Source: an uncultured virus (IMG/VR IMGVR_UViG_3300031998_000047) (lineage: Duplodnaviria > Heunggongvirae > Uroviricota > Caudoviricetes). Taken from it: 64,000 bases of DNA. The translations under genes and the position numbers were made by a program. Under the pieces are notes generated by a model. That model worked only from the letters and a program-made list of their open reading frames with translations. It was not told the origin of the DNA and made no database searches. Positions 27,825 through 62,003 of this stretch are shown here, one piece after another. Positions within the stretch are counted from its first letter, which is position 1, and each line of letters begins with the position of its first letter. The DNA is taken from IMG/VR virus record IMGVR_UViG_3300031998_000047; one strand, given 5' to 3'.

Positions 27825-27860
27825 CTTTCTTATGATTAAAAAATAAATGTTTCAAATGTG

Positions 27861-27934
27861 TGCGCCTTGACAGACTCGAACTGCCGACCCACGGATTAAA
27901 AATCCGTTGCTCTAACCAACTGGGCTAAAAGCGC
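27861..27934 (-). tRNA. tRNA-Lys(UUU)
   Basis: Cloverleaf; anticodon arm ACGGA-TTTTTAA-TCCGT; TTCGA T loop; CCA not encoded. Confidence 0.9.
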
Positions 27935-27937
27935 AAG

Positions 27938-28032
27938 TGACCGCCACCTTAACCGTTCCATAAAGGTCTATGGAGTCGAACCATAGAACGTGGCATTTAC
28001 CTAATCTCGGTCAACGAGCCGACTCGAACGGC
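27938..28032 (-). ncRNA. Unclassified tRNA-like RNA with two T-loop hairpins
   Basis: GCCG-TTCGAGT-CGGC and CTATGG-TTCGACT-CCATAG; closing stem TGACCG/CGGTCA; no anticodon arm. Confidence 0.45.
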
Positions 28033-28037
28033 ATTCG

Positions 28038-28350
28038 TGGAGGTAAAGGGAGTCGAACCCTTGTCTTGCCAACTTATCATAGAAACTTGTTACGTGCGTC
28101 GGGGCTGACCAGCTTTTATAACTTGGACGAGCGTTCCACCACCAAGTTTGTCGTCTAACTTGGAAATCCACATTTGCCGTGACCTTTATGTTCCTTCGCA
28201 AGTCACCCGCGAGGTGCTTATGCGGCGATGCGCATTGTAGCACGGGGAGTCATATTGACAACCTTAGCATTTATTGTTTTTACCATTTCAAAGCATGATT
28301 GCTTGCACGATTTCTTACCATCAATTGACAATCAAAACCAAAATACCCCC
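28038..28350 (-). ncRNA. ssrA: tmRNA
   Basis: 5' GGGGGTA pairs with 3' TACCTCC-A (G3-U70). T arm AAGGG-TTCGACT-CCCTT preceded by GAC. ATAAAT-GCT resume context; tag ORF 28268-28218 = AKVVNMTPRATMRIAA*. Confidence 0.92.
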
Positions 28351-28356
28351 GTATCA

Positions 28357-28433
28357 TGGTGGAGAATGTGAGACTCGAACTCACGACCCTCTGCTTGCAA
28401 AGCAGATGCTCTAACCAACTGAGCTAAAACCCC
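28357..28433 (-). tRNA. tRNA-Ala(UGC)
   Basis: TCTGC-TTTGCAA-GCAGA; G3-U70; CCA encoded; two U-U mismatches in the acceptor stem. Confidence 0.85.
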
Positions 28434-28455
28434 AAAACAAAAAAGAACACTTTCG

Positions 28456-28526
28456 TTACCCCAATAGGACTCGAACCTATTCAAACAGAACCAAAATCTG
28501 TTGTGCTACCATTACACCATAGGGCA
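28456..28526 (-). tRNA. tRNA-Gln(UUG)
   Basis: ACAGA-TTTTGGT-TCTGT; U1-A72. Confidence 0.88.
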
Positions 28527-28533
28527 ATTTTAG

Positions 28534-28661
28534 TCGCGAAAGAAGGAATTGAACCTCCACCAGAAATGTACTCGACAAATCCACCTTGCTTATTCCCCGC
28601 GTTCTTATTCACATAACCTCCCGTACCATCTACGGGCGTGCTACCGTTACACCATTTCGCG
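28534..28661 (-). ncRNA. Atypical tRNA-like RNA with a ~60-nt variable region and non-canonical anticodon loop
   Basis: Acceptor CGCGAAA/TTTCGCG; D arm GTGT-AACGGTA-GCAC; CCCGT-AGATGGT-ACGGG; T arm GGAGG-TTCAATT-CCTTC. Confidence 0.65.
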
Positions 28662-28666
28662 TTTTG

Positions 28667-28754
28667 CGGCGAGTAAAGGGCTCGAACCTTTGCGCCATTT
28701 TACTGACCTAAGACGTTAGCAATGTCTCCCCTTCACCAACTTGGGTAACTCGCC
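28667..28754 (-). tRNA. tRNA-Ser(GCU)
   Basis: AGACA-TTGCTAA-CGTCT, long variable arm, G73. Confidence 0.85.
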
Positions 28755-28764
28755 GTGTGCTTAG

Positions 28765-28856
28765 AGGAGGAAGTGGGACTCAAACCCACACACCGCTTTT
28801 ACACGATTACTGGTAGTTTTCAAGACTACTGCCTTATCAATTAGGCTTATTTCTCC
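28765..28856 (-). tRNA. tRNA-Ser(UGA), divergent
   Basis: GTAGT-CTTGAAA-ACTAC, long variable arm; T loop TTTGAGT and D loop lacking GG are atypical. Confidence 0.7.
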
Positions 28857-28862
28857 AATTTG

Positions 28863-28944
28863 TTGCGGTAGCAGGAGTCGAACCCGCAATTTTCGGGATA
28901 TGAGCCCGACGTGGTTTATAAATATCCAATTCCACTATACCGCG
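28863..28944 (-). tRNA. Initiator tRNA-fMet(CAU) with enlarged D loop
   Basis: C1:A72 mismatch; GGG/CCC anticodon stem; loop CTCATAT; D loop AATTGGATATTTATAAA. Confidence 0.8.
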
Positions 28945-44933: not shown

Positions 44934-45371
44934 TCATACGTTTTCTTTGTTTTTGTTGTTAATGTATTCGTTTATTGCCTGCTGGCATAAAGAGTCACAA
45001 AGCTCATTGTAAAAGTTCCCGTTGTGGGATTTTACCCAAGAATACGTTACCGAAAGGCCACGCGACTCAATGATGTTATCATAGAGTGTAAGCAAATCCG
45101 TATTCTTGTATCGTATGCAGCGTTTACTGCAAGCATCAAGCGCATATTTTGAGTCGCTTATGACGGTACAGCTATCGGCATCTTCGGGCAAAGCATACAC
45201 GGCACTTATGATGGCTTTCAGCTCCGCACGCCCGCTGGTTTCGCCCTTTACGGTCTGATGCAGGCGGCGTACCTCCCTTTTGGGTACTGCTTGTATCATA
45301 ACGTATGCAATGGAACTGCGCTCATGTTCGGGGAAATATGCCCCGTCTGTATAAATTAAATAATGAGCCAT
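44934..45371 (-). CDS. rnhA: Ribonuclease HI (paralog 2)
   Basis: YTDG, RAELKAI, SDSKY and WVKSH.G..YNE.CD catalytic motifs. Confidence 0.85.
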   Translation of the reverse strand: MAHYLIYTDGAYFPEHERSSIAYVMIQAVPKREVRRLHQTVKGETSGRAELKAIISAVYALPEDADSCTVISDSKYALDACSKRCIRYKNTDLLTLYDNIIESRGLSVTYSWVKSHNGNFYNELCDSLCQQAINEYINNKNKENV

Positions 45372-45392
45372 AAAAGGTTTCAGTTCGTAGAT

Positions 45393-45830
45393 TTACTTTT
45401 TCTTGTATTTCGCAAATTCTGCGTTCAAGTCCATGCCAGCAACCTCGCTACACATCTTGTCGCACATTTCGTTGTATTGGTTGCCATCGTGACCACGTAC
45501 CCATTCGTATAAAACATTTAATCGTCGCTCTTTGATAATCTTGTCGTAGATAGGAAATAGGTCGGTATTTGACTTGCGCTGCCATTTGCCACTAAGAGTA
45601 TAAAGCGCATATTGCGAATCGGAAATAATTTGAACGTCGGTAGCATCCGTAGGTAGATGATGCACGCCAGCAATAATAGCTTTAAGTTCTGCGCGATTGT
45701 TCGTTTCTTTCTCGATTTTCCAAGCGTTTTTCTTGATAACGTTTTCCTTATCGTCAAGCATCACGTACGCAAACGCACCTATATCTTTCAACTGTGAATA
45801 ACCGCCATCCGTATAAATAGTGTACCTCAT
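45393..45830 (-). CDS. rnhA: Ribonuclease HI (paralog 1)
   Basis: YTDG, TNNRAELKAI, SDSQY and WVRGH.GN.YNE.CD motifs. Confidence 0.9.
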   Translation of the reverse strand: MRYTIYTDGGYSQLKDIGAFAYVMLDDKENVIKKNAWKIEKETNNRAELKAIIAGVHHLPTDATDVQIISDSQYALYTLSGKWQRKSNTDLFPIYDKIIKERRLNVLYEWVRGHDGNQYNEMCDKMCSEVAGMDLNAEFAKYKKK

Positions 45831-45934
45831 AATAATTAATTAATTTATCGTACTTTCTTTACTATAATATTCTATAATTATTATATTTAACAAACATAGT
45901 TTTGATTTTTGAACCTTGATTTTTCACAAAATCC

Positions 45935-46378
45935 CCAAAAGCGCGTGTCACCGCACTCTGGTTATTCTGTGATTTAACGTAGTCCGTCATCCGTCCCCCG
46001 TCAATCCCACACAAGTTTCTATGTAAGTGAACTTGCTTTGTTTCATTCCGTCCTTACCAACGTTGCCCCCAAGCGAACCAAACAACCATTTCCAAGTTGC
46101 AACCCCTACTTGCCACCCACAGGTTTCTCTTTTGGTGGTATTTAACCCAACGCCAAGCGTGTCTACCAATACAATTCCTCTTTCGGTTTCTAATGGACGT
46201 ACAAACGTCGGGCGAGTGATAAAGGAAAGCCCTACACCTACAAAATGCGGAAATCCCTATCAAGCAGTGACGGTGCAAGATAGGGATAATTCCTTTGTAT
46301 AGTGTAGAGCTATTCGTGAATCTCAAATTACTATCTACCGAAAAGTCCGTGTTCAAGCCCGTCACACTTGTTTCACGG
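45935..46378 (-). ncRNA. Putative structured ncRNA/leader with kissing loops, upstream of the RNase H pair
   Basis: Own promoter element (TATCTTTG 46388-46381); two hairpins with complementary loops GTGACGG/CCGTCAC; G-rich 3' half; no credible ORF. Confidence 0.55.
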
Positions 46379-46439
46379 TGCAAAGATAAGAAAAACTTTT
46401 TATATTCCAATAATCCGTTAAGATTATTTAAGAAAAAAC

Positions 46440-47840
46440 CTACAGATTATACGCCTCGATGGTGTTTATGAGCGCGTTCTTATCTTCCTCAAGTAGTTTC
46501 ATGAGGTCGAAAATCTTTTCGCTGAACCCTGCAAGGCAGAACACATCTTTCTCTGGTACTTGCAGTGTGCCATAGCCAGCAAGGTCTATTGAGTACATCT
46601 TGCAATCAGGGTTGTACTTCTGCTTGTATGCGTTGTACGCTGCTGACTGAGACTTCACCCAGTAGTCGTTCTGCATCCAAGCCTGCATATCTGACAAAAG
46701 GATAACACGGTCATATTTCCTATTTGCCGTTTCAAAGATAGAAATAAAGTTTGTGCCACCACCCGAAAACCTCAGATTATCCTTGATAGTCATAAGACTA
46801 TCGTCAGTATTTACGATTTGATATGTAGAGTTGTGTGAAAACTTAATCAAGTCGCAGTCGTTTGACTTCAACAAGACGGCAGCGAACAACGCTGCAATGT
46901 CAGATACGCCATACATAGAGCCTGACACGTCAAGGGCTATAAGCGTCTTACCGCCAAGCTTGGGTACGTTGTCGCAGGCAATCTCGCAGGCACGGCTTAT
47001 TGCCGACATAGCCTTTGAATCAATCGTTGACAGTTCCTTGTATGCAGTGGCAAAGCGGAACGGAAGAACGAGCGACTTGTGTATTGCCTTTTCATTCAGC
47101 AGTGCATCCAAGGCAAGGTCTTTCAGCTCGTCGTCCTGTAGGTTCGCGATGTTGCGTATGTTGCGAAGCAGTGCAAAATATCCCAACTTGTTCTCGGAGA
47201 TAAGTTTGCGCCATGCGCTTTTCTTCTTTTCCACGTCATTGCCTGCCGCAGACAACTCTACCTCCCAAGTGTCAAATGCTTTAAGGTTGCCGTTGACCAA
47301 CTTTTCAATAGCACCGTTGTTCTTCTCTGTCTGCGTCGGGTGCACCAAGTTCACGACATCCACAAGTTTTACCTTGTTGCCATCGCCTCTGTACTTAGAC
47401 AATTGGTAGTCAGTGAAAGTACCTAACGCTTCTGCAAAACCCTTCTTCATGGCATTAGAAACCTTCTCGTTGCGTGACAGGTGACAAGCGATGATTTCCG
47501 TCATGTCATCAGGTCTGTAAACGACCTTCGCAAAGAAATCCTTTGCCCACGTCTCACCACCGATGTACTTCGCAAGCACTGAAGCCGCATAGTGTGTGAT
47601 TGTGCGCATACCAAACTCCCTGCGTGCATAGCATACAGCCTTGGCGCAGAACAGCTTGTCGCAGTCCTTGACAAGTTCATCAAGTTTTTTGAATGTGTCG
47701 TCTGCACTACGGTATGTCTTGTCGTCTCCGAATGAAGTCAGCAGCATAGACACCAACTGTAGTTCCTTACTCTCTTTGTAAGCCTTACCACCTGCAAGGT
47801 TGGTAACACCAGTTTCCTTTTTCTCGTTGAATCGTGACAT
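46440..47840 (-). CDS. rsr: Ro60/TROVE-domain RNA-binding protein (Rsr-like) with vWA domain
   Basis: N-terminal N.AGG.AY; YAR...MR, KY, TWE.ELS, ALLRNIRN and LPFRF motifs; MIDAS DVSGSM, GGT, SDMQ, GFSE. True start probably MSRFN at 47840. Confidence 0.9.
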   Translation of the reverse strand: MSRFNEKKETGVTNLAGGKAYKESKELQLVSMLLTSFGDDKTYRSADDTFKKLDELVKDCDKLFCAKAVCYARREFGMRTITHYAASVLAKYIGGETWAKDFFAKVVYRPDDMTEIIACHLSRNEKVSNAMKKGFAEALGTFTDYQLSKYRGDGNKVKLVDVVNLVHPTQTEKNNGAIEKLVNGNLKAFDTWEVELSAAGNDVEKKKSAWRKLISENKLGYFALLRNIRNIANLQDDELKDLALDALLNEKAIHKSLVLPFRFATAYKELSTIDSKAMSAISRACEIACDNVPKLGGKTLIALDVSGSMYGVSDIAALFAAVLLKSNDCDLIKFSHNSTYQIVNTDDSLMTIKDNLRFSGGGTNFISIFETANRKYDRVILLSDMQAWMQNDYWVKSQSAAYNAYKQKYNPDCKMYSIDLAGYGTLQVPEKDVFCLAGFSEKIFDLMKLLEEDKNALINTIEAYNL

Positions 47841-47865
47841 AATTCTCTTGTTTTTTGTGAACGTA

Positions 47866-47907
47866 TATAAAAAAAGAAAGAGGGGAAACTTCGTAAAGCA
47901 TCCCCTC
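47866..47907 (-). terminator. Intrinsic terminator/attenuator between the Y RNAs and the Ro60 gene
   Basis: GAGGGGA-14 nt-TCCCCTC followed by TTTCTTTTTTT. Confidence 0.65.
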
Positions 47908-47915
47908 ATGTAGTT

Positions 47916-48061
47916 TATCCGAGATAGTTTGACAAGGAGCATTTTGCGTTGCTCTACCAACTGAGCTACTCCCTGATGTTTTCTGTTTGTCAGGGAGGGC
48001 AGGCTCGAACTACCGACACACGGCTCCCAAAGCGAAGTAACCCTGTCTGTCGCTACGGATA
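47916..48061 (-). ncRNA. yrlA: YrlA-type Y RNA with a permuted tRNA-like domain
   Basis: Terminal stem TATCCG/CGGATA. Order: T arm (GGTAG-TTCGAGC-CTGCC), closed acceptor hairpin (CTCCCTGA/TCAGGGAG), D arm (GCTC-AGTTGGTA-GAGC). Adjacent to the Ro60 gene. Confidence 0.85.
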
Positions 48062-48068
48062 TATATCA

Positions 48069-48143
48069 TTGAGGGAAAAACGAAAACAGTCAGTAATTAG
48101 CATTGTTTATAATAGATGAAGTAACTGTTTTCTCGCCACTCAA
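48069..48143 (-). ncRNA. Second Y-RNA-like gene (short, no tRNA domain)
   Basis: TTGAG/CTCAA terminal stem; TGG-CGA-GAAAACAGT stem then TACTTC, as in the YrlA; TGCT motif. Confidence 0.65.
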
Positions 48144-48162
48144 ACATTTTTTCAAAGAACGA

Positions 48163-48238
48163 AAAGCGAAGATAATTACCAACGGCATAGCGGGTCAATT
48201 TAGCAGATTGATGCAACCGTAAGCATCGCTATCGCTTT
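48163..48238 (-). ncRNA. Third Y-RNA-like gene (short)
   Basis: AAAGCGA/TCGCTTT terminal stem; TAG-CGA-stem-TTGCATC; TGCT and 3' ATCT as in the YrlA. Confidence 0.6.
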
Positions 48239-48245
48239 GTATATG

Positions 48246-48308
48246 CAAAGGTAGTTATAATATTTGAACCTGCAATGGGTTTTTTCAACTTTAACACAAC
48301 TTTAACAC
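48246..48308 (-). promoter_or_regulatory. Promoter of the Y RNA-Ro60 cassette with upstream GTGTTAAA direct repeat
   Basis: TACCTTTG at 48253-48246; GTGTTAAA-N3-GTGTTAAA at 48308-48290. Confidence 0.7.
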
Positions 48309-52386: not shown

Positions 52387-53202
52387 TTACTCGTTATTAG
52401 TTGATGAATATTTTTCTGCAGACTTTCGCAGGTTTCCGATATACGAAGCCAACTTGACTTGCATCTGTCGGCTTTCAATATCCGAAAAATCCCATTTAAC
52501 AAATAGTGTCTGGTCGAGTTCTTTGTAGTCTTTCATCATCAAAAGAACCTTTTGCCTTATACCGTCCTTTGTCGTTATGTCATCCCACAACCACTCGTTT
52601 ACTTCTCCTTGTGTAGCATCAGGAAAGATGTTACGCAAAACCTTCAAAAACATTTGTATATCTCTCGATTCAAAGTGCCGTCTGTTCTTTGTTGCTCCTC
52701 TTTGCATATTTTCCTTGTTAAGTTGTTCCTTTGTCTTTGATTCGTAAGCGTCACGCCATGCGTCCGATGCGCCACCAGTAACCTCGCCGCGCTCTTTCTT
52801 TGCGGCCAATGCCTTGCGTGTGCGGTCACTTGTCAACTCACGCTCATATTGCGCCACCGATGCAAACACGCCAAGAAGTAACGTGTTGATTTGCGGCATG
52901 TCGCAAAAGTGTATCTCTATCCCCGTGTTCACCACACGAAAACAGAACTCAACGTCACGCGCCAAGCGGTCAAGTTTTGCAATAACCAAGGCGCAGCAGT
53001 TACGCTTGCAGTATTCGATAGCCTCGGCCAGCCCTTTGCGGTCACGGTGAGTACCGCTTTCCACGTCTTTGAACTCGCCCACTTTTACGCCGTCATTCGA
53101 CTTGATAAAATCCTCACAAATCTTGCGCTGACTTTCCAAGCCCAAACCGCTTGCGCCCTGCTTTGCCGTTGACACACGGATATAAATTGCATAGTCTTTC
53201 AT
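52387..53202 (-). CDS. Serine recombinase (resolvase/invertase family)
   Basis: YIRVST..Q, DVESG, AKLDRLAR and E...TS.RT..AL motifs; start MKDY at 53202. Confidence 0.9.
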   Translation of the reverse strand: MKDYAIYIRVSTAKQGASGLGLESQRKICEDFIKSNDGVKVGEFKDVESGTHRDRKGLAEAIEYCKRNCCALVIAKLDRLARDVEFCFRVVNTGIEIHFCDMPQINTLLLGVFASVAQYERELTSDRTRKALAAKKERGEVTGGASDAWRDAYESKTKEQLNKENMQRGATKNRRHFESRDIQMFLKVLRNIFPDATQGEVNEWLWDDITTKDGIRQKVLLMMKDYKELDQTLFVKWDFSDIESRQMQVKLASYIGNLRKSAEKYSSTNNE

Positions 53203-53206
53203 AACC

Positions 53207-56200
53207 TTACACGTCTTTAGATTCACGATAATAAATAATAATATGGCTACATTTGCGCCGTACCTTGATACGTACCTCTGTCGAGCCCGTGCAGTCATAT
53301 TCACAATGGGCATAGTCACAAGAGTAGTCGCCTTTAAATTCAAGTGCTCTCCACCATGTGCGTTTTGTGTACTTTACAATACACTTACCCTCTAATATAT
53401 CCCAATAAAGCGCGTCCTCATCTGTAATCCTAAACTTGAACCCGCCACGCACGAAGTCATAAACCTGCTTGCGTCTTTGTTTCTTATACTTTTTCATTTT
53501 GATTTACCCTCTTGAAAATCCCTTTGCTTATAAATCTTATCTAACGTCTCGCCAAGATTAACACTCGCCTTATGGCTTTCTTTGTCGCCAGTAATGCGGT
53601 AAGCCTCTTCACATGTATGCTTTTGCACCTCCATTGCCGCCGTGATTCTTATTAAATCATCGCGGGTAATGTGTAGCGTATAAGCCATTTTTGCTGCCAT
53701 AGTTATTCCTCCTCGTCTTTAATGATTTCGATACATTCCTCCGTAAGCCCGTCAATTTCGTTATAAACCTCTACTGGCGCATTGAGTGTAAATACGCGGT
53801 CATCAAACCAACCTTGCTCCCATTTCGTAATGTAAGCCGAATAAGCCAAAGTGAAGGCCAAGATGTTACAGCCTATCACGTTTACTCTAAATGTCTTCAT
53901 AAACAATTCACTTTTAAGTTAAACTTCTTTTTCTTGTGGCGGTAGCCGTTTCCTCCACGGCTACAAAGGTTTTATTTATACCGCCTAACCACCCGCCAAG
54001 CCCGTAGGCAGGAATCAACAACAACACAAGACGAGATATGCCCGCCCCGATTAATTGTTAGTTTTCGTTCTTGTCGCTGTGGGTTTCATCGGCCATTTTC
54101 TTCACGCCAGCAACCAGCTTGGCATAAAGGATATTCAGCCGCATGACCTCCTCAACATCTTTCATGTCCTCGACACTTTCAGACAGAATCTTTGCCGCAA
54201 AACCTACAGACGCTGTGATACGCTGCATATCATCCTGCGTCAATGCTACACCAAAAACCATAGTTTTTGAAATTTAAATTGTTAATAACTTGATTTACTT
54301 ACCGCCGATTTTGAATATCGAACCACTCAAAATCATTCCCAAGACTCCTAAAAAGATAAGAAACTCCATACGATATAAAGATTTAAATTTGGGTTAATAA
54401 CTGAAGAATTTCATTTAGTTGGTCATTCTCCTGCATAAGACCGTTGCGGGCTGCGTTATTCGTTATCATGTCTAACGCCTCACGATTGACCTTGATTTTC
54501 TTGAGTACGCTTTCGCCTACCAAATCAAGCTGCTGTTTGTTTAGTTTCAGATATTCCATAGCTGTTACTTATTAAAGTAGTTCAATACATCACTCCACGA
54601 ACCATTAACTACGGGGGTATCAAATCCTACGTTACGGTCGTATATTTCCCAATGAGCATTTCTGCATCCGTGACTGCCTTTTTCAAGATGTTGGCAGCAG
54701 AACAGAACATCGCCGCTTTCCATGTCACAGATTGAGAATTGGTCGTACAATTTACCCACCGTCGGGCAATTGTTCTTAAAGAATACATACGTCTTGTCTG
54801 CATCAAAACGCCTGCTATCCTTGATTGCCACCACATTGCGGCCAAGACGCTGCGTCTTTTCGGCCAAAGATGAATCCTTGCAGAACCAGTCATACCATCC
54901 TGCCTCAATCTGAACGTTTCTAAAAGGACGGTCGAAGTCGCCATTGAGAAAACGTTCAACAAACTTTGTGATAGTCATATTTTCCATATCAAGCCCTTTC
55001 TATTTTTCAATTGTTTCATACTCGACGATTTCCTTACACTTGTTGCAATAGCACTCTTCCTCGTCTTCTTCCACGACCTTGTTGTTCTTGGGATTTACCC
55101 ACGCATGTACGAGAATATCGTCAGAACCGCACACGCTGCAAATATACTTTTTCATAATTAAGCACGTTTTATTAATTATATATATTAATTATTATATACG
55201 CGTCACCCGCGCACGTTAAAGATTATTTGCGCTCTTACATTCATTATAGAACGACAGACAGGCTTGTTTATAAGTATATCCGTAGACCTTAACCCTGTCT
55301 TCAACATCAATGTTTTTTATTCGGTCGTATGCCAACGAGTTGTGCGAGGTGCAAGAATATAACTTGCCTCTATACTCGATGGTTATTTTATACGTTCCGT
55401 ACCCCTTCCACTGGATAGTTATACGGTCTATAAATTCCTGTATAGTCATTTCACAAACAATTAAAGTAAGACAATATCTTCAGATTACTCATCCAAAAAG
55501 ACTTCCATATATCGGGGAACACATCGCCCGAAACATAAAGCATAGCCGCCCACAGCAGGCCAGCCATAGAATACCAGCCCCCGCCACAGATAAGAAGCAC
55601 AGCCACCGTCAATGCAGCCGTACAAACCAAATAGATAAACACTAACTTTGCCATCTTGATGCCCTCCTTGATACTGATTTGTTGATACTCTTTATTTTCT
55701 TGCACTCCATGATGTATGTTTTGCGACACGCACCAATCATAAAGAAGATGAATGTTTGTGCATTTGAATTTGCGCACGAAACGCTTCACAATATTCATGT
55801 CAATTGTCACGTACCCGTACTCGTTGTTAAAGTCGGATAGTATCTTTTCGTAATCGTATTTTTTAGCCATAATAATAAATCTTTTTAGTTCTACCTTATA
55901 AAGTGGCCACCAACGTAAACGGATAACGTCAGCGGCCACGTAAACAAATTTAATAAAAGGGATTTAATAAATATCTACAGTCATTTGTTTGTAGGGATAA
56001 CCGTCTGTAACTTTGTTTAATGTTTCGGCAATGGAAAACCAAAACTTTTGCAACTTGTCGGCCAAGTCTTTCTCGTCTTTCCACGCTTGCCTTCTAAACC
56101 ATTTGCCACCCACAAACTGATGAGCCTTTTTTATTGAACACATAGCAAGATAACTCGTCTGCTGGTCGTGCCTTGTTAGGTATATATGACCACAACGAAA

Positions 56201-59582: not shown

Positions 59583-62003
59583 ATAAAATCTCCTATAAAT
59601 TAATACGTTAATAAATAAAATGAACTATATTTGAAGGCTGCAAAAGTTCGGTTTTTCATTTTGCCCTATTAGTTGTCAATTTCCTGCGGGTGCAATTAAT
59701 CTTCCTATTTGCAAGTATTTATATATGTGCAAAATAAATTCTGTTCCCAGTGCTAAATACCCTGCACAAAAATACAAAATAGTGAGTTATTTGCTGTTTG
59801 CAATTCATTGAAACATCATGCAATTAACAGCCCTTTGTTTAAAATATCAATGTTACTTTTTAATCCCCTAACTATTCTTTTTAATTCCTTATTAGGTGAG
59901 AGGGTCAAAACTTTGCACGCTAACAAGTAAATGCAAGTTTTCGGGATAATGTGCTCGTCCTATTTCCCTTTGTAGTCTTCGGGCTATCAACTTACTGCGT
60001 ATATAGTGCCCAAACTTGCAAAGATAGGTCGAGGCTTTTTCCTCGCCCCCAAACGCCCCCTGCCCGCTATGTGGCTCTCGCCTGCCGTTCTAACGTTTTG
60101 GTATTGCAAAGGTACGAATAATTTTGTATATACCAAAGAAAAACATGAAAATTTATTTTGCCCGTAACTTGTTGATTTTCAAGTAGTTAAGACAATTTGT
60201 AATAATAAATACATCGAATATTGGTTTTTTGCCCTTCGATTTTTGTTAAATAGATTTAATGAAAGTAATAATACTAAACAAAAAAGTCTTAAATTCATAA
60301 AAATGAAATCTTTGTAAATGCTTATAAATCAATAACTTAAATATAAATCATATACTTTTATAAATGTAATTAAGCGTTAAATTCATAACAAAATAGGTAT
60401 TAAAGTACATAAAATATAAATGTAAATATTATTTATTTTAGGCTTTTCCTGCGCTATCTTTGCAGGAGGTTTTATATATGCGTACATATTATATATATAA
60501 ATATAGCGTTTAAAGCCATTTTAAAGCCCTGCCGACCTTTTGCCATTTTGTCCGCATGATAAATGATAAATACACATTTTCCGACCGCTGGTTGCAACCA
60601 TATAAAACAAAGATATATTTTTATATCCATTTTGCACCCCAAAATAATAGTGTAATATATACACTTATAACACCATATTTATAAAAAGGTGCGTTTAAAA
60701 CGTAACTTATTAAAAATCAAGCAGTTAAATATTTATTAACAATAAGGAATATTTACAGATAATTATATACTAAAATCTTGCAAATGCCTTTATATAAAGG
60801 ACTTTTAGTACATATATAGACCTATTTTATTTATGTACTTTTTCAAGACAAAAGACCCCAATTTTCCCGCTGTCGCGTTTTCATGCCCTTTGTGGGTACT
60901 TATACCAGCCCCAAATTTTTAAGCGATTTGTGTACGCGCACACAAGCCTTTTATTATTTAGACTTTTATAAAATATTGCCCTAATTGCGTGAAACACCCA
61001 TAAATAAAGGACATTCAAATATTATACGTTTCTTAACATAATATACTAACAAATGTTAGAGCCATTTATATATAAGGTTTTCCAACGTTTTAAGTGTATA
61101 TGTTACAATATTAATTTTTATGTGCTTTTCTATTTGTGTACGCACACAATTCAAAATAATCGTGAAACATTTTGCACCCTATATTTATAGCCCTTATTTC
61201 ATAGTGTATTATTTACACTTATTCTTTGTAACTGCCAGTATCATTTAATTATTAATTGTATTTAGTACACTTATTATCTTTTCTTTTTCTTTTTATTTCT
61301 TTTTCTATTCTTATTTATTATATTATATTATTATATAGATTTATATATTTATTTTCTTTTTTATTTTAATGCTTTTCTTTTAGCTTATAAAAGCCTATAT
61401 TTACACAGAATATATAATTATATTATTTCCCGTTTTCCTGCCCTTTGTAGCCCTTAATATAATATACTTTATATATAATATATATAGTTACCTAATAACT
61501 AAAAAACAACCTTATAACAGCCTATTTTCAAGACTGAAAATATATGTATCTTTGCAGCCCAAAATTTATTTTTTTATTCCTTTGTTTGCGTATCTTTGCG
61601 TGGATTATTTAGTTGTACCGTCGTATAATATAAGCGGGTGCAAAGTTATAAATTAAAAACGAACGTTACAAATACATAACACGTTGGTTTTCAGCGAGTT
61701 ACGGGGATTTATAGGGGGTGGGGGGTATTTCGCGCCAAAAATCGGTGTGGTGCGTATAATCCGTTTTTAAAAAAAAGAAATTTTTGAAAAAAGAAAAATT
61801 TTCGCGTGCGTGCGTATGCAGGTATATTCCTATATATAGTATATACTTATTTATATAAGGTATCTTATATATATAAAGAAACCTTTATAATAGTTAATCT
61901 TTTGTTAAAGTTACCTTATTATTAGGTATATCTAAAATAAAGTGTGTATATTTGCACCCGAATTTATTTATTAGTTTAATATTATAATAAAAGAAAGTTA
62001 TTT
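59583..62003. other. 2.4 kb AT-rich non-coding divergent control region (possible origin/genome end)
   Basis: No ORFs. TAnnTTTG boxes at 60019, 60107 and 61641 (minus) and 61547, 61591 and 61947 (plus). Four 25-bp IHF-like quasi-palindromes; G tract near 61714-61725. Confidence 0.6.

Follow-up and report, generated by a model that had tools for sequence, protein, structure and literature searches.

The 64,000-nucleotide (nt) stretch of DNA analysed here (the window) comes from an uncultured virus of the Caudoviricetes, IMG/VR record IMGVR_UViG_3300031998_000047. Between a Ro60 gene and the first of two RNase HI genes it contains a 609-nt spacer (46439–45831, minus strand) that bears a structured RNA with its own promoter, in which the apical loops of two hairpins are complementary to each other. 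The RNA belongs to an uncatalogued family of promoter-coupled structured RNAs in Bacteroidales phages of the rumen and gut, where it occurs once per genome. Covariation among its members shows that the kissing of the two loops is real, far beyond chance. The RNA locus and all surrounding genes lie on the minus strand, and gene order is given 5′ to 3′ on that strand.

Covariation between the two loops

Hairpin 1 (46378–46347) is composed of an outer stem (46378–46374 with 46351–46347) and an inner stem (46370–46366 with 46358–46354) that closes in the loop GTGACGG (46365–46359). Hairpin 2 is a stem-loop of about 84 nt (46311–46228), and its 7-nt apical loop CCGTCAC (46273–46267) is the complement of the hairpin 1 loop, 92 nt away on the same strand. 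An earlier interpretation made from the letters of the window alone, the sequence-only reading, had described a promoter, both hairpins and the seven-base-pair match of their loops. Promoter and hairpins were confirmed on the minus strand, and the complementarity of the loops turned out to be conserved.

Relatives were collected by three routes. The RNase H proteins led to L002, L003 and L004. The conserved promoter-plus-start word gave members at five of six viral loci and at 12 of 78 metagenome loci, the remaining 66 being devoid of promoter and hairpin 2 and resembling unrelated, mostly coding matches. Two patterns describing hairpin 2 only added L114, L116 and L120; five of the ten loci returned by the second of these patterns were chance coding matches. 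After duplicates were collapsed, 14 variants were available, namely the window (=L042) and 13 phage or metagenome contigs (L002/L008, L003/L009, L004/L011, L012, L013, L030, L043, L055, L068, L072, L114, L116 and L120).

Alignment A3 comprises the nine variants with 7-nt loops and leaves out L012, L072, L114, L116 and L120. In it, the seven kissing pairs are Watson–Crick in 63 of 63 cells, with no G-U, and six of the seven have changed on both sides. The structure as a whole is 98.1% paired, compared with 32–46% when the partner strand is slid. The variants outside A3 are also complementary, over nine letters in L012, eight in L120, seven in L114 and L116, and six in L072 (the last by reading). 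Altogether there are 12 different loop codes among the 14 variants and every pair matches, while only 7 of 156 non-self combinations reach seven or more complementary letters. Each of the three variants found through hairpin 2 alone has a matching hairpin 1 loop; since that loop was unconstrained in the search, the result amounts to an independent test passed.

On this comparison the seven-letter code appears free to vary, and in the two closest pairs of relatives the loops have changed faster than the remainder of the module. Loop letters differ at 10 of 14 positions between L013 and L043, against 24 of 154 elsewhere (p = 2e-5), and at 4 of 14 between L030 and L068, against 11 of 154 elsewhere (p = 0.02). 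By reading, the differences between L013 and L043 cluster between the two loops, as if the segment had been swapped as a cassette. Fast change that is always matched is what a specificity code would be expected to show.

The sequence-only reading had further suggested that the loop match could lengthen at the expense of both stems. A 12-letter extension (CAAGU plus loop against loop plus RCUUG) is indeed possible in 13 of the 14 variants, L114 being the exception (by reading), but the two flanks hardly vary, so covariation cannot support this part of the proposal. The absence of wobble in the loop pairs, together with the inverted-repeat flanks CAAGT and ACTTG, may mean that changes are copied from arm to arm by template switching.

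A constant 5′ module and an exchangeable 3′ domain

Across the variants the RNA is built of a 5′ module that is constant and a 3′ domain that is exchangeable, with a full length of 450–550 nt. The promoter (46381–46410) consists of a −33-like TTG (46410–46408) and, 19 nt downstream of it, a −7 box TATCTTTG (46388–46381). This box matches TAnnTTTG, which we take to be the Bacteroidetes-type promoter consensus and which is retained in all 13 variants scored and, by reading, in L072. The nearest cultured phage by terminase, Bacteroides phage C3_41T2LP (53.6% identity; host Bacteroides uniformis), fits a promoter of this type. It gave no convincing match to the RNA model R1 (best E 0.45). The promoter-plus-start word has a single strong match in the window, at the promoter of the RNA, and the 5′ end of the transcript is nearly invariant among variants. 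A resemblance to a second promoter within hairpin 2 is confined to the window, where the loop happens to mirror the transcript start, and was discarded.

The outer stem of hairpin 1 measures 4–7 base pairs among variants and the inner stem 5; the latter is paired in 45 of 45 cells, with changes from U-A to U-G. A linker (46346–46312) of variable sequence and retained length, 25–38 nt in the ten variants measured, leads to hairpin 2. Linker length and the length of the hairpin 2 arms (28–42 nt) have a rank correlation of 0.50 (p = 0.12, one row being faulty). The upper stem of hairpin 2 is 96% paired and has three pairs changed on both sides. Its GC-rich base stem and the terminator-like U-rich tract that directly follows (46228–46219) are retained in every variant, L011 among them. 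For the 609-nt spacer the folding energy is −175 kcal/mol, compared with −143 kcal/mol for 20 shuffled versions (z = −6.3). The stems that carry the loops exchange G-U for A-U or G-C among variants, which shows selection at the level of RNA and on the minus strand. Protein coding by the spacer was rejected: its open reading frames (ORFs) of 118, 60 and 50 amino acids are not kept in relatives, and the alignment contains many insertions and deletions of 1–2 nt.

Behind the U tract, the window carries a 3′ domain designated type A (46219–46005). A closing helix, UCAC (46219–46216) with 46008–46005, encloses helices P2–P7 and the G-rich tract, and a nested terminal hairpin (P8/P9, 45969–45924) follows. 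The six members of type A are the window, L008, L009, L012, L068 and L072; L114 looks similar by eye. From 46219 to 45924 there are 57 predicted pairs in nine helices, 30 of which have changed on both sides, and pairing amounts to 89.4% against 37–41% when slid. Elsewhere the domain is unrelated (L030/L043, L013, L055/L116-like, L120), giving at least four unrelated versions, and L011 has none, its ORF beginning about 25 nt past the U tract. The 3′ domain of the window has 31% G and 17% C (skew 0.28), while relatives have skews of 0.16–0.23 in the rest of type A and 0.07–0.12 in other types; at such levels G skew is ordinary for structured RNA.

An AT-rich spacer (45923–45831; 22–26% GC over 45930–45831) separates the terminal hairpin from the first RNase H gene. 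The G-rich, C-poor tract, the 3′ hairpin and the AT-rich stretch listed in the sequence-only reading are therefore all present. No terminator was flagged between the RNA and RNase H by a scan for sigma-70 and terminator consensus. Within the AT-rich spacer, a block of about 25 nt at 45890–45918 is retained in four of the six type A variants and has overlapping TAnnTTTG motifs on both strands (45898–45891, minus; 45897–45904, plus); it could be a site for a protein or a promoter, either antisense or serving RNase H.

A search with model R1 gave a single strong copy of the RNA in the window and one in each of the whole records G002–G006, all rated complete (80–85 kb with terminal repeats, about 84 kb classed as linear, and one of 46 kb), and none in G001, the sole relative found through Ro60. 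At gathering scores, Rfam recognises only transfer-messenger RNA (tmRNA) and tRNAs in the window. With thresholds relaxed to E = 10 for 45700–46600 and to E = 1 for the loci of ten relatives, each search returned one chance match (CRISPR-DR in the first case) and nothing else. The RNA matches no family of Rfam 15, including RNAI, pRNA, ROOL, GOLLD, mepA/guanidine-IV, Y_RNA and YrlA. The 609-nt spacer had no blastn match among 50,697 GenBank phage records, a pattern scan of 185,579 species genomes gave 0 matches, a 20-nt word of the 3′ domain recovered two already known contigs only, and a literature search of main texts found no description of the kissing-loop RNA. On the 58-kb viral contig L010 (1440–1640, plus), the common promoter and the first 20 letters of the transcript occur without hairpin 2; instead, a 7-letter word there is the complement of one arm and the loop of a small terminator hairpin that precedes an ORF. 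The contig may hold a minimal relative, or the resemblance may be due to chance.

Possible functions of the RNA

We favour, tentatively and with less than even confidence, a promoter-coupled leader RNA whose kissing loop acts on the terminator-like hairpin 2. The RNA would be the leader of the downstream early operon, which in the window begins with two RNase H genes. The kiss would clamp hairpin 1 onto the tip of hairpin 2, and the clamp would set the share of transcripts that stop at the U tract rather than continuing through the 3′ domain to the genes for nucleases or replication. With the CAAGU and RCUUG flanks, the kiss might also grow into a longer duplex. Because no recognisable terminator precedes the next gene, and because a gene lies close behind the RNA in several variants, a leader of the downstream operon is the simplest reading. 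The GC-rich base of hairpin 2 and its U tract, kept even where the 3′ domain is lost, have the look of an attenuator, which favours a leader acting in cis with the kiss tuning the choice between stop and read-through. An RNA switch ahead of RNase H, the alternative named in the sequence-only reading, is possible.

The genes that such a leader would serve are frequently nucleases. The two RNase HI genes of the window (45830–45393 and 45371–44934) each encode 145 amino acids and match Pfam RNase_H (PF00075; E 5.9e-23 and 8.3e-19, respectively). The two proteins share 45% identity. All four catalytic columns (D, E, D and D) are kept, in the alignment to 1hrh and in that of the two paralogs, which bears out the earlier description of two RNase HI paralogs with full catalytic motifs. 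Of the 11 variants checked, five have RNase H as their first downstream gene, and L030 has it as the second; a nuclease of some kind comes first in seven (five RNase H and two DUF559/PvuRts1I-like) and first or second in nine. The DUF559/PvuRts1I-like endonuclease gene stands directly behind the RNA in L043 (1102–1821) and L072 (1701–2243) and is preceded by a winged helix-turn-helix-like gene in L011 (1663–2898). Where the 3′ domain is of type B or C, the following gene begins a short way past the RNA, and no promoter motif was seen between the two (by reading). The downstream genes of L012 and L013 have no Pfam family. As an aside, the DUF559/PvuRts1I-like genes occupy the place of RNase H in L011, L043 and L072 and look like inserted selfish nuclease genes. 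At L114 (1101–1431, plus), the gene behind the RNA resembles RNase H with G, Y and P in place of the first three catalytic residues D, E and D (by eye), and may be an inactive paralog.

Among kissing-loop transcription attenuators, a comparable arrangement is found in the guanidine-IV riboswitch (mepA motif), a leader with two hairpins and kissing loops in which the kiss is proposed, in a report on that riboswitch, to release the terminator and so govern read-through (PMC11611296). Unlike that motif, the phage RNA has no Rfam match, its loops are hypervariable (12 codes in 14 variants) instead of holding conserved ligand-binding letters, and hairpin 2 is itself terminator-like and is backed by a structured domain of 300 nt.

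Several observations weigh against a leader that works by attenuation. Intrinsic terminators are usually far shorter than hairpin 2, which the consensus scan did not flag, and it is not obvious that a kiss at the tip of this hairpin would either block or favour the closing of its base. The helix that closes the type A domain opens with UCAC directly after the U tract and finds its partner 210 nt downstream, so the tract may be a linker within one large RNA and not a stop signal. A simple attenuator also fails to account for the covarying 3′ domain, about 300 nt long, that lies beyond the supposed terminator. In RNA library X22, the sole contig on a 3.6-kb stretch is 284 nt long (46013–46290) and runs across the supposed terminator; it is a weak hint of read-through past the U tract, and possibly DNA carry-over. 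The library data were mapped as contigs only, so uncovered parts are uninformative, and contigs cannot show transcript ends. The acceleration of loop change is also not general: between L011 and L013 the loops differ at 4 of 14 positions against 35 of 147 elsewhere (p = 0.45), and other close pairs are likewise not enriched. Finally, the link with nucleases may be mere synteny within one phage lineage.

Another loop-pairing leader was noticed in the phage lineage of G003, ahead of an HNH/NUMOD gene (L110:15500–15610, minus). Behind its promoter motif, TAACTTTG, comes an outer stem that resembles a terminator and has a U run; the hairpin inside this stem has a loop of nine letters complementary to a site about 20 nt upstream of the start codon.

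It is possible, though on balance improbable, that the RNA instead stands alone as a large structural RNA of the ornate type known from phages, its loop helix serving as a tertiary contact or as an intermolecular joint, from hairpin 1 of one molecule to hairpin 2 of the next, that builds dimers, rings or chains. In the oligomeric version, lineage-specific codes would stop co-infecting relatives from forming mixed assemblies. A size of 450–550 nt with many covarying helices, a single phage-encoded copy of rumen origin and absence from Rfam would all suit such an RNA, as would the helix that starts right after the U tract and joins the 5′ module to the 3′ domain, and the loops that lack wobble and change fast in two close pairs. 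There are also precedents. In ROOL and GOLLD, covarying kissing loops first read as tertiary contacts are reported to have proved intermolecular, joining separate molecules (PMC12286853), and the pRNA of phi29 is described as forming multimers through kissing between identical molecules (PMC4201828). The phage RNA resembles these RNAs in being phage-encoded and highly structured with covarying loop–loop pairs, and ROOL is of rumen origin. It differs from them in matching none of the ROOL, GOLLD and pRNA models, in lying 17 kb from the tRNA island, and in having an exchangeable 3′ domain and being apparently co-transcribed with genes. The swapping of the 3′ domain for unrelated versions, or its loss in L011, while the 5′ module stays, counts against a self-contained structure, and no terminator was seen at the 3′ end by the consensus scan. 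Covariation looks alike for pairing within or between molecules, and by rough geometry the linker of 25–38 nt would be enough for a kiss within one molecule, although it would allow either.

Whatever the assembly, the matched and fast-changing loop pair could be an RNA address code, a self/non-self device by which molecules of a phage lineage would recognise none but their own kind, through head-to-tail assembly into an RNA-only complex or through leader RNAs acting on the nascent transcripts of co-infecting genomes; we regard this as a speculative and rather unlikely proposal. In the c4 RNA of P1 and P7, matched letters set specificity. In P4, CI RNA with seqA and seqC is described as a case in which short complementary segments of an untranslated early leader control premature termination before replication genes (PMC4825925). 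The phage RNA shares with P4 the short complementary segments within one early leader transcript ahead of replication genes, but pairs loop to loop between two hairpins 92 nt apart, and no sign of lysogeny was seen.

A trans-acting specificity RNA of this kind, with plasmid copy-control RNAs as a further model, is unlikely. Short transcripts ending at the U tract would accumulate and kiss nascent transcripts of the same or a co-infecting genome and thereby shut off or time the early operon, and different codes would make relatives mutually blind. This is consistent with codes that are hypervariable and always matched, with the enrichment of loop changes in the two closest pairs and the cassette-like clustering in L013/L043, and with the placing, before genes for replication and recombination, of a strong promoter and of a hairpin 2 that resembles a terminator. 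Different codes also occur within one metagenome (L003/L004; L030/L043), but with 12 codes in 14 variants this is expected anyway. No sign of lysogeny emerged from the 0 matches in 185,579 species genomes, a result that does not prove a lytic lifestyle, and the Pfam and PHROG scans recognised a serine recombinase of 308 amino acids and no repressor. Moreover, the partner in cis should usually win within one molecule.

Control of ColE1 replication rests on an antisense RNA, RNA I, directed against RNA II. The sequence-only reading had proposed an origin of this type, in which the folded G-rich RNA forms an R-loop, the adjacent RNase H cuts it to prime replication, and kissing provides copy control. 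The idea is not supported, and we consider it very unlikely. The window does offer an RNA of about 500 nt with 7-nt kissing loops on its 5′ hairpins and a 3′ part rich in G. AT-rich DNA and both intact RNase H genes come next, and the whole lies among genes for replication and recombination (SSB, RecE/RecT-like, clamp). However, the two loops lie in one transcript and do not form a sense/antisense pair; their complementarity, being within one strand, needs compensatory change. No antisense gene was found: a motif scan alone shows no plus-strand TAnnTTTG within 46216–46388, and the only plus-strand motif of the spacer (45897–45904) is at its far 3′ end. There is no RNAI-type Rfam match. The link to RNase H is not constant, as it is the next gene in just 5 of 11 variants, and the RNase H-like gene of L114 is without three catalytic residues (by eye). 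The G skew drops to 0.07–0.23 in relatives, making strong skew a peculiarity of the window, and the 3′ domain with the G-rich tract is exchangeable or absent.

Indirect evidence on replication also points elsewhere. G003 is collinear with the window (megablast pieces 82–96% identical), and in the 18 kb beyond it this relative encodes a 714-amino-acid helicase of the DnaB type or primase-helicase (Pfam DnaB_C, 1e-8; phrog_239, 2e-34) and, in the adjoining gene, a 208-amino-acid protein weakly like replication initiators (phrog_270, 5e-8), both within L110:12179–14957 on the minus strand. This pair is likely to be the replication module of the phage lineage. Cumulative GC skew in the window has its minimum at about 61–62 kb and no inflection at 46 kb; skew follows gene direction here and is therefore weak as evidence for an origin, but it points away from 46 kb. 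The minimum falls in the most AT-rich ORF-free DNA, at 59.6–62.0 kb. This 2.4-kb region (59583–62003; 25–30% GC) lies between divergent gene blocks; TAnnTTTG motifs are numerous in it, and it also has short repeats. The region is a candidate for early control, and as a possible origin it is preferable to the locus at 46 kb.

A role as client or partner of the Ro60 protein encoded upstream, that is as a second Y-like RNA, is highly improbable. The RNA begins 52 nt after the stop of the Ro60 gene (ORF 47960–46440, probable start 47840; TROVE, E 1e-15, and vWA_Ro60), and a YrlA-like Y RNA lies on the far side of that gene (48022–47945; 30.4 bits, E 2e-4, below the Rfam gathering score of 69). However, L003, whose flanking genes are about 95% identical, has 800 base pairs in place of the 2,556 of the window and lacks YrlA and Ro60, and a DNA contig of run X3 matches 45297–46371 (53 mismatches, 6 gaps) and diverges just upstream of the promoter. 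Both keep the RNA without Ro60 or YrlA at the locus, and the Ro60/Y-RNA unit (46440–48253) is thus an inserted module. Conversely, the sole relative found via Ro60 (L001/G001) lacks the RNA, and no YrlA or Y_RNA match occurs within it. The YrlA-like unit has its own TACCTTTG motif at 48253–48246 and a strong hairpin with a U-run terminator at about 47905–47870.

Least credible of all is an inverted repeat acting as DNA, either as a protein or recombinase site or as an invertible segment: the strictly Watson–Crick pairing (0 G-U in 63 cells), the CAAGT and ACTTG flanks that lengthen the repeat and the serine recombinase gene could be cited for it, but the repeats coincide exactly with hairpin loops, the stems of these hairpins use G-U on the minus strand only, the orientation is the same in all 14 variants with no inversion joint in mapped contigs, and a protein would need to co-evolve with 12 codes.

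Phage setting and significance

The identity of the window as a phage is backed by PHROG scans. They place structural and lysis genes on the plus strand at 5.9–23 kb and a DNA-metabolism block, with serine recombinase, methyltransferases, RecE/RecT-like proteins, sliding clamp and resolvase, in a long minus-strand run from 59.6 to 23 kb. The serine recombinase gene is located at 52387–53313. Upstream of the Ro60 unit lie a radical-SAM gene (49649–48678) and a small ORF (48621–48418) that precedes the YrlA-bearing non-coding stretch; a small membrane ORF, a GNAT gene and an SSB gene follow 3′ of the second RNase H gene. The tRNA island (27860–28944, minus) contains a tmRNA (66.8 bits) and six tRNA genes by Rfam, and five tRNAs (Lys, Ala, Gln, Ser, Ser) by ARAGORN.

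The mechanism class, loop–loop kissing in a phage leader or an ornate RNA, is known; the self-addressed hypervariable code and the modular build are new. The tempting annotation of an origin at 46 kb is left without support, and the Ro60 and Y-RNA genes are a separate inserted module beside the RNA. Covariation has rarely proven a tertiary or quaternary contact in a phage RNA to this extent, and the element is compact, with its own host-type promoter and an obvious experimental handle in its loops. If the RNA is an attenuator, it would show how Bacteroidales phages, whose gene control is poorly known, dose their nuclease and replication genes. If the code acts between molecules, the RNA would be a new natural self-assembling RNA or a means of RNA-based kin recognition, and its codes would be a source of programmable, orthogonal kissing pairs that evolution has already tested.

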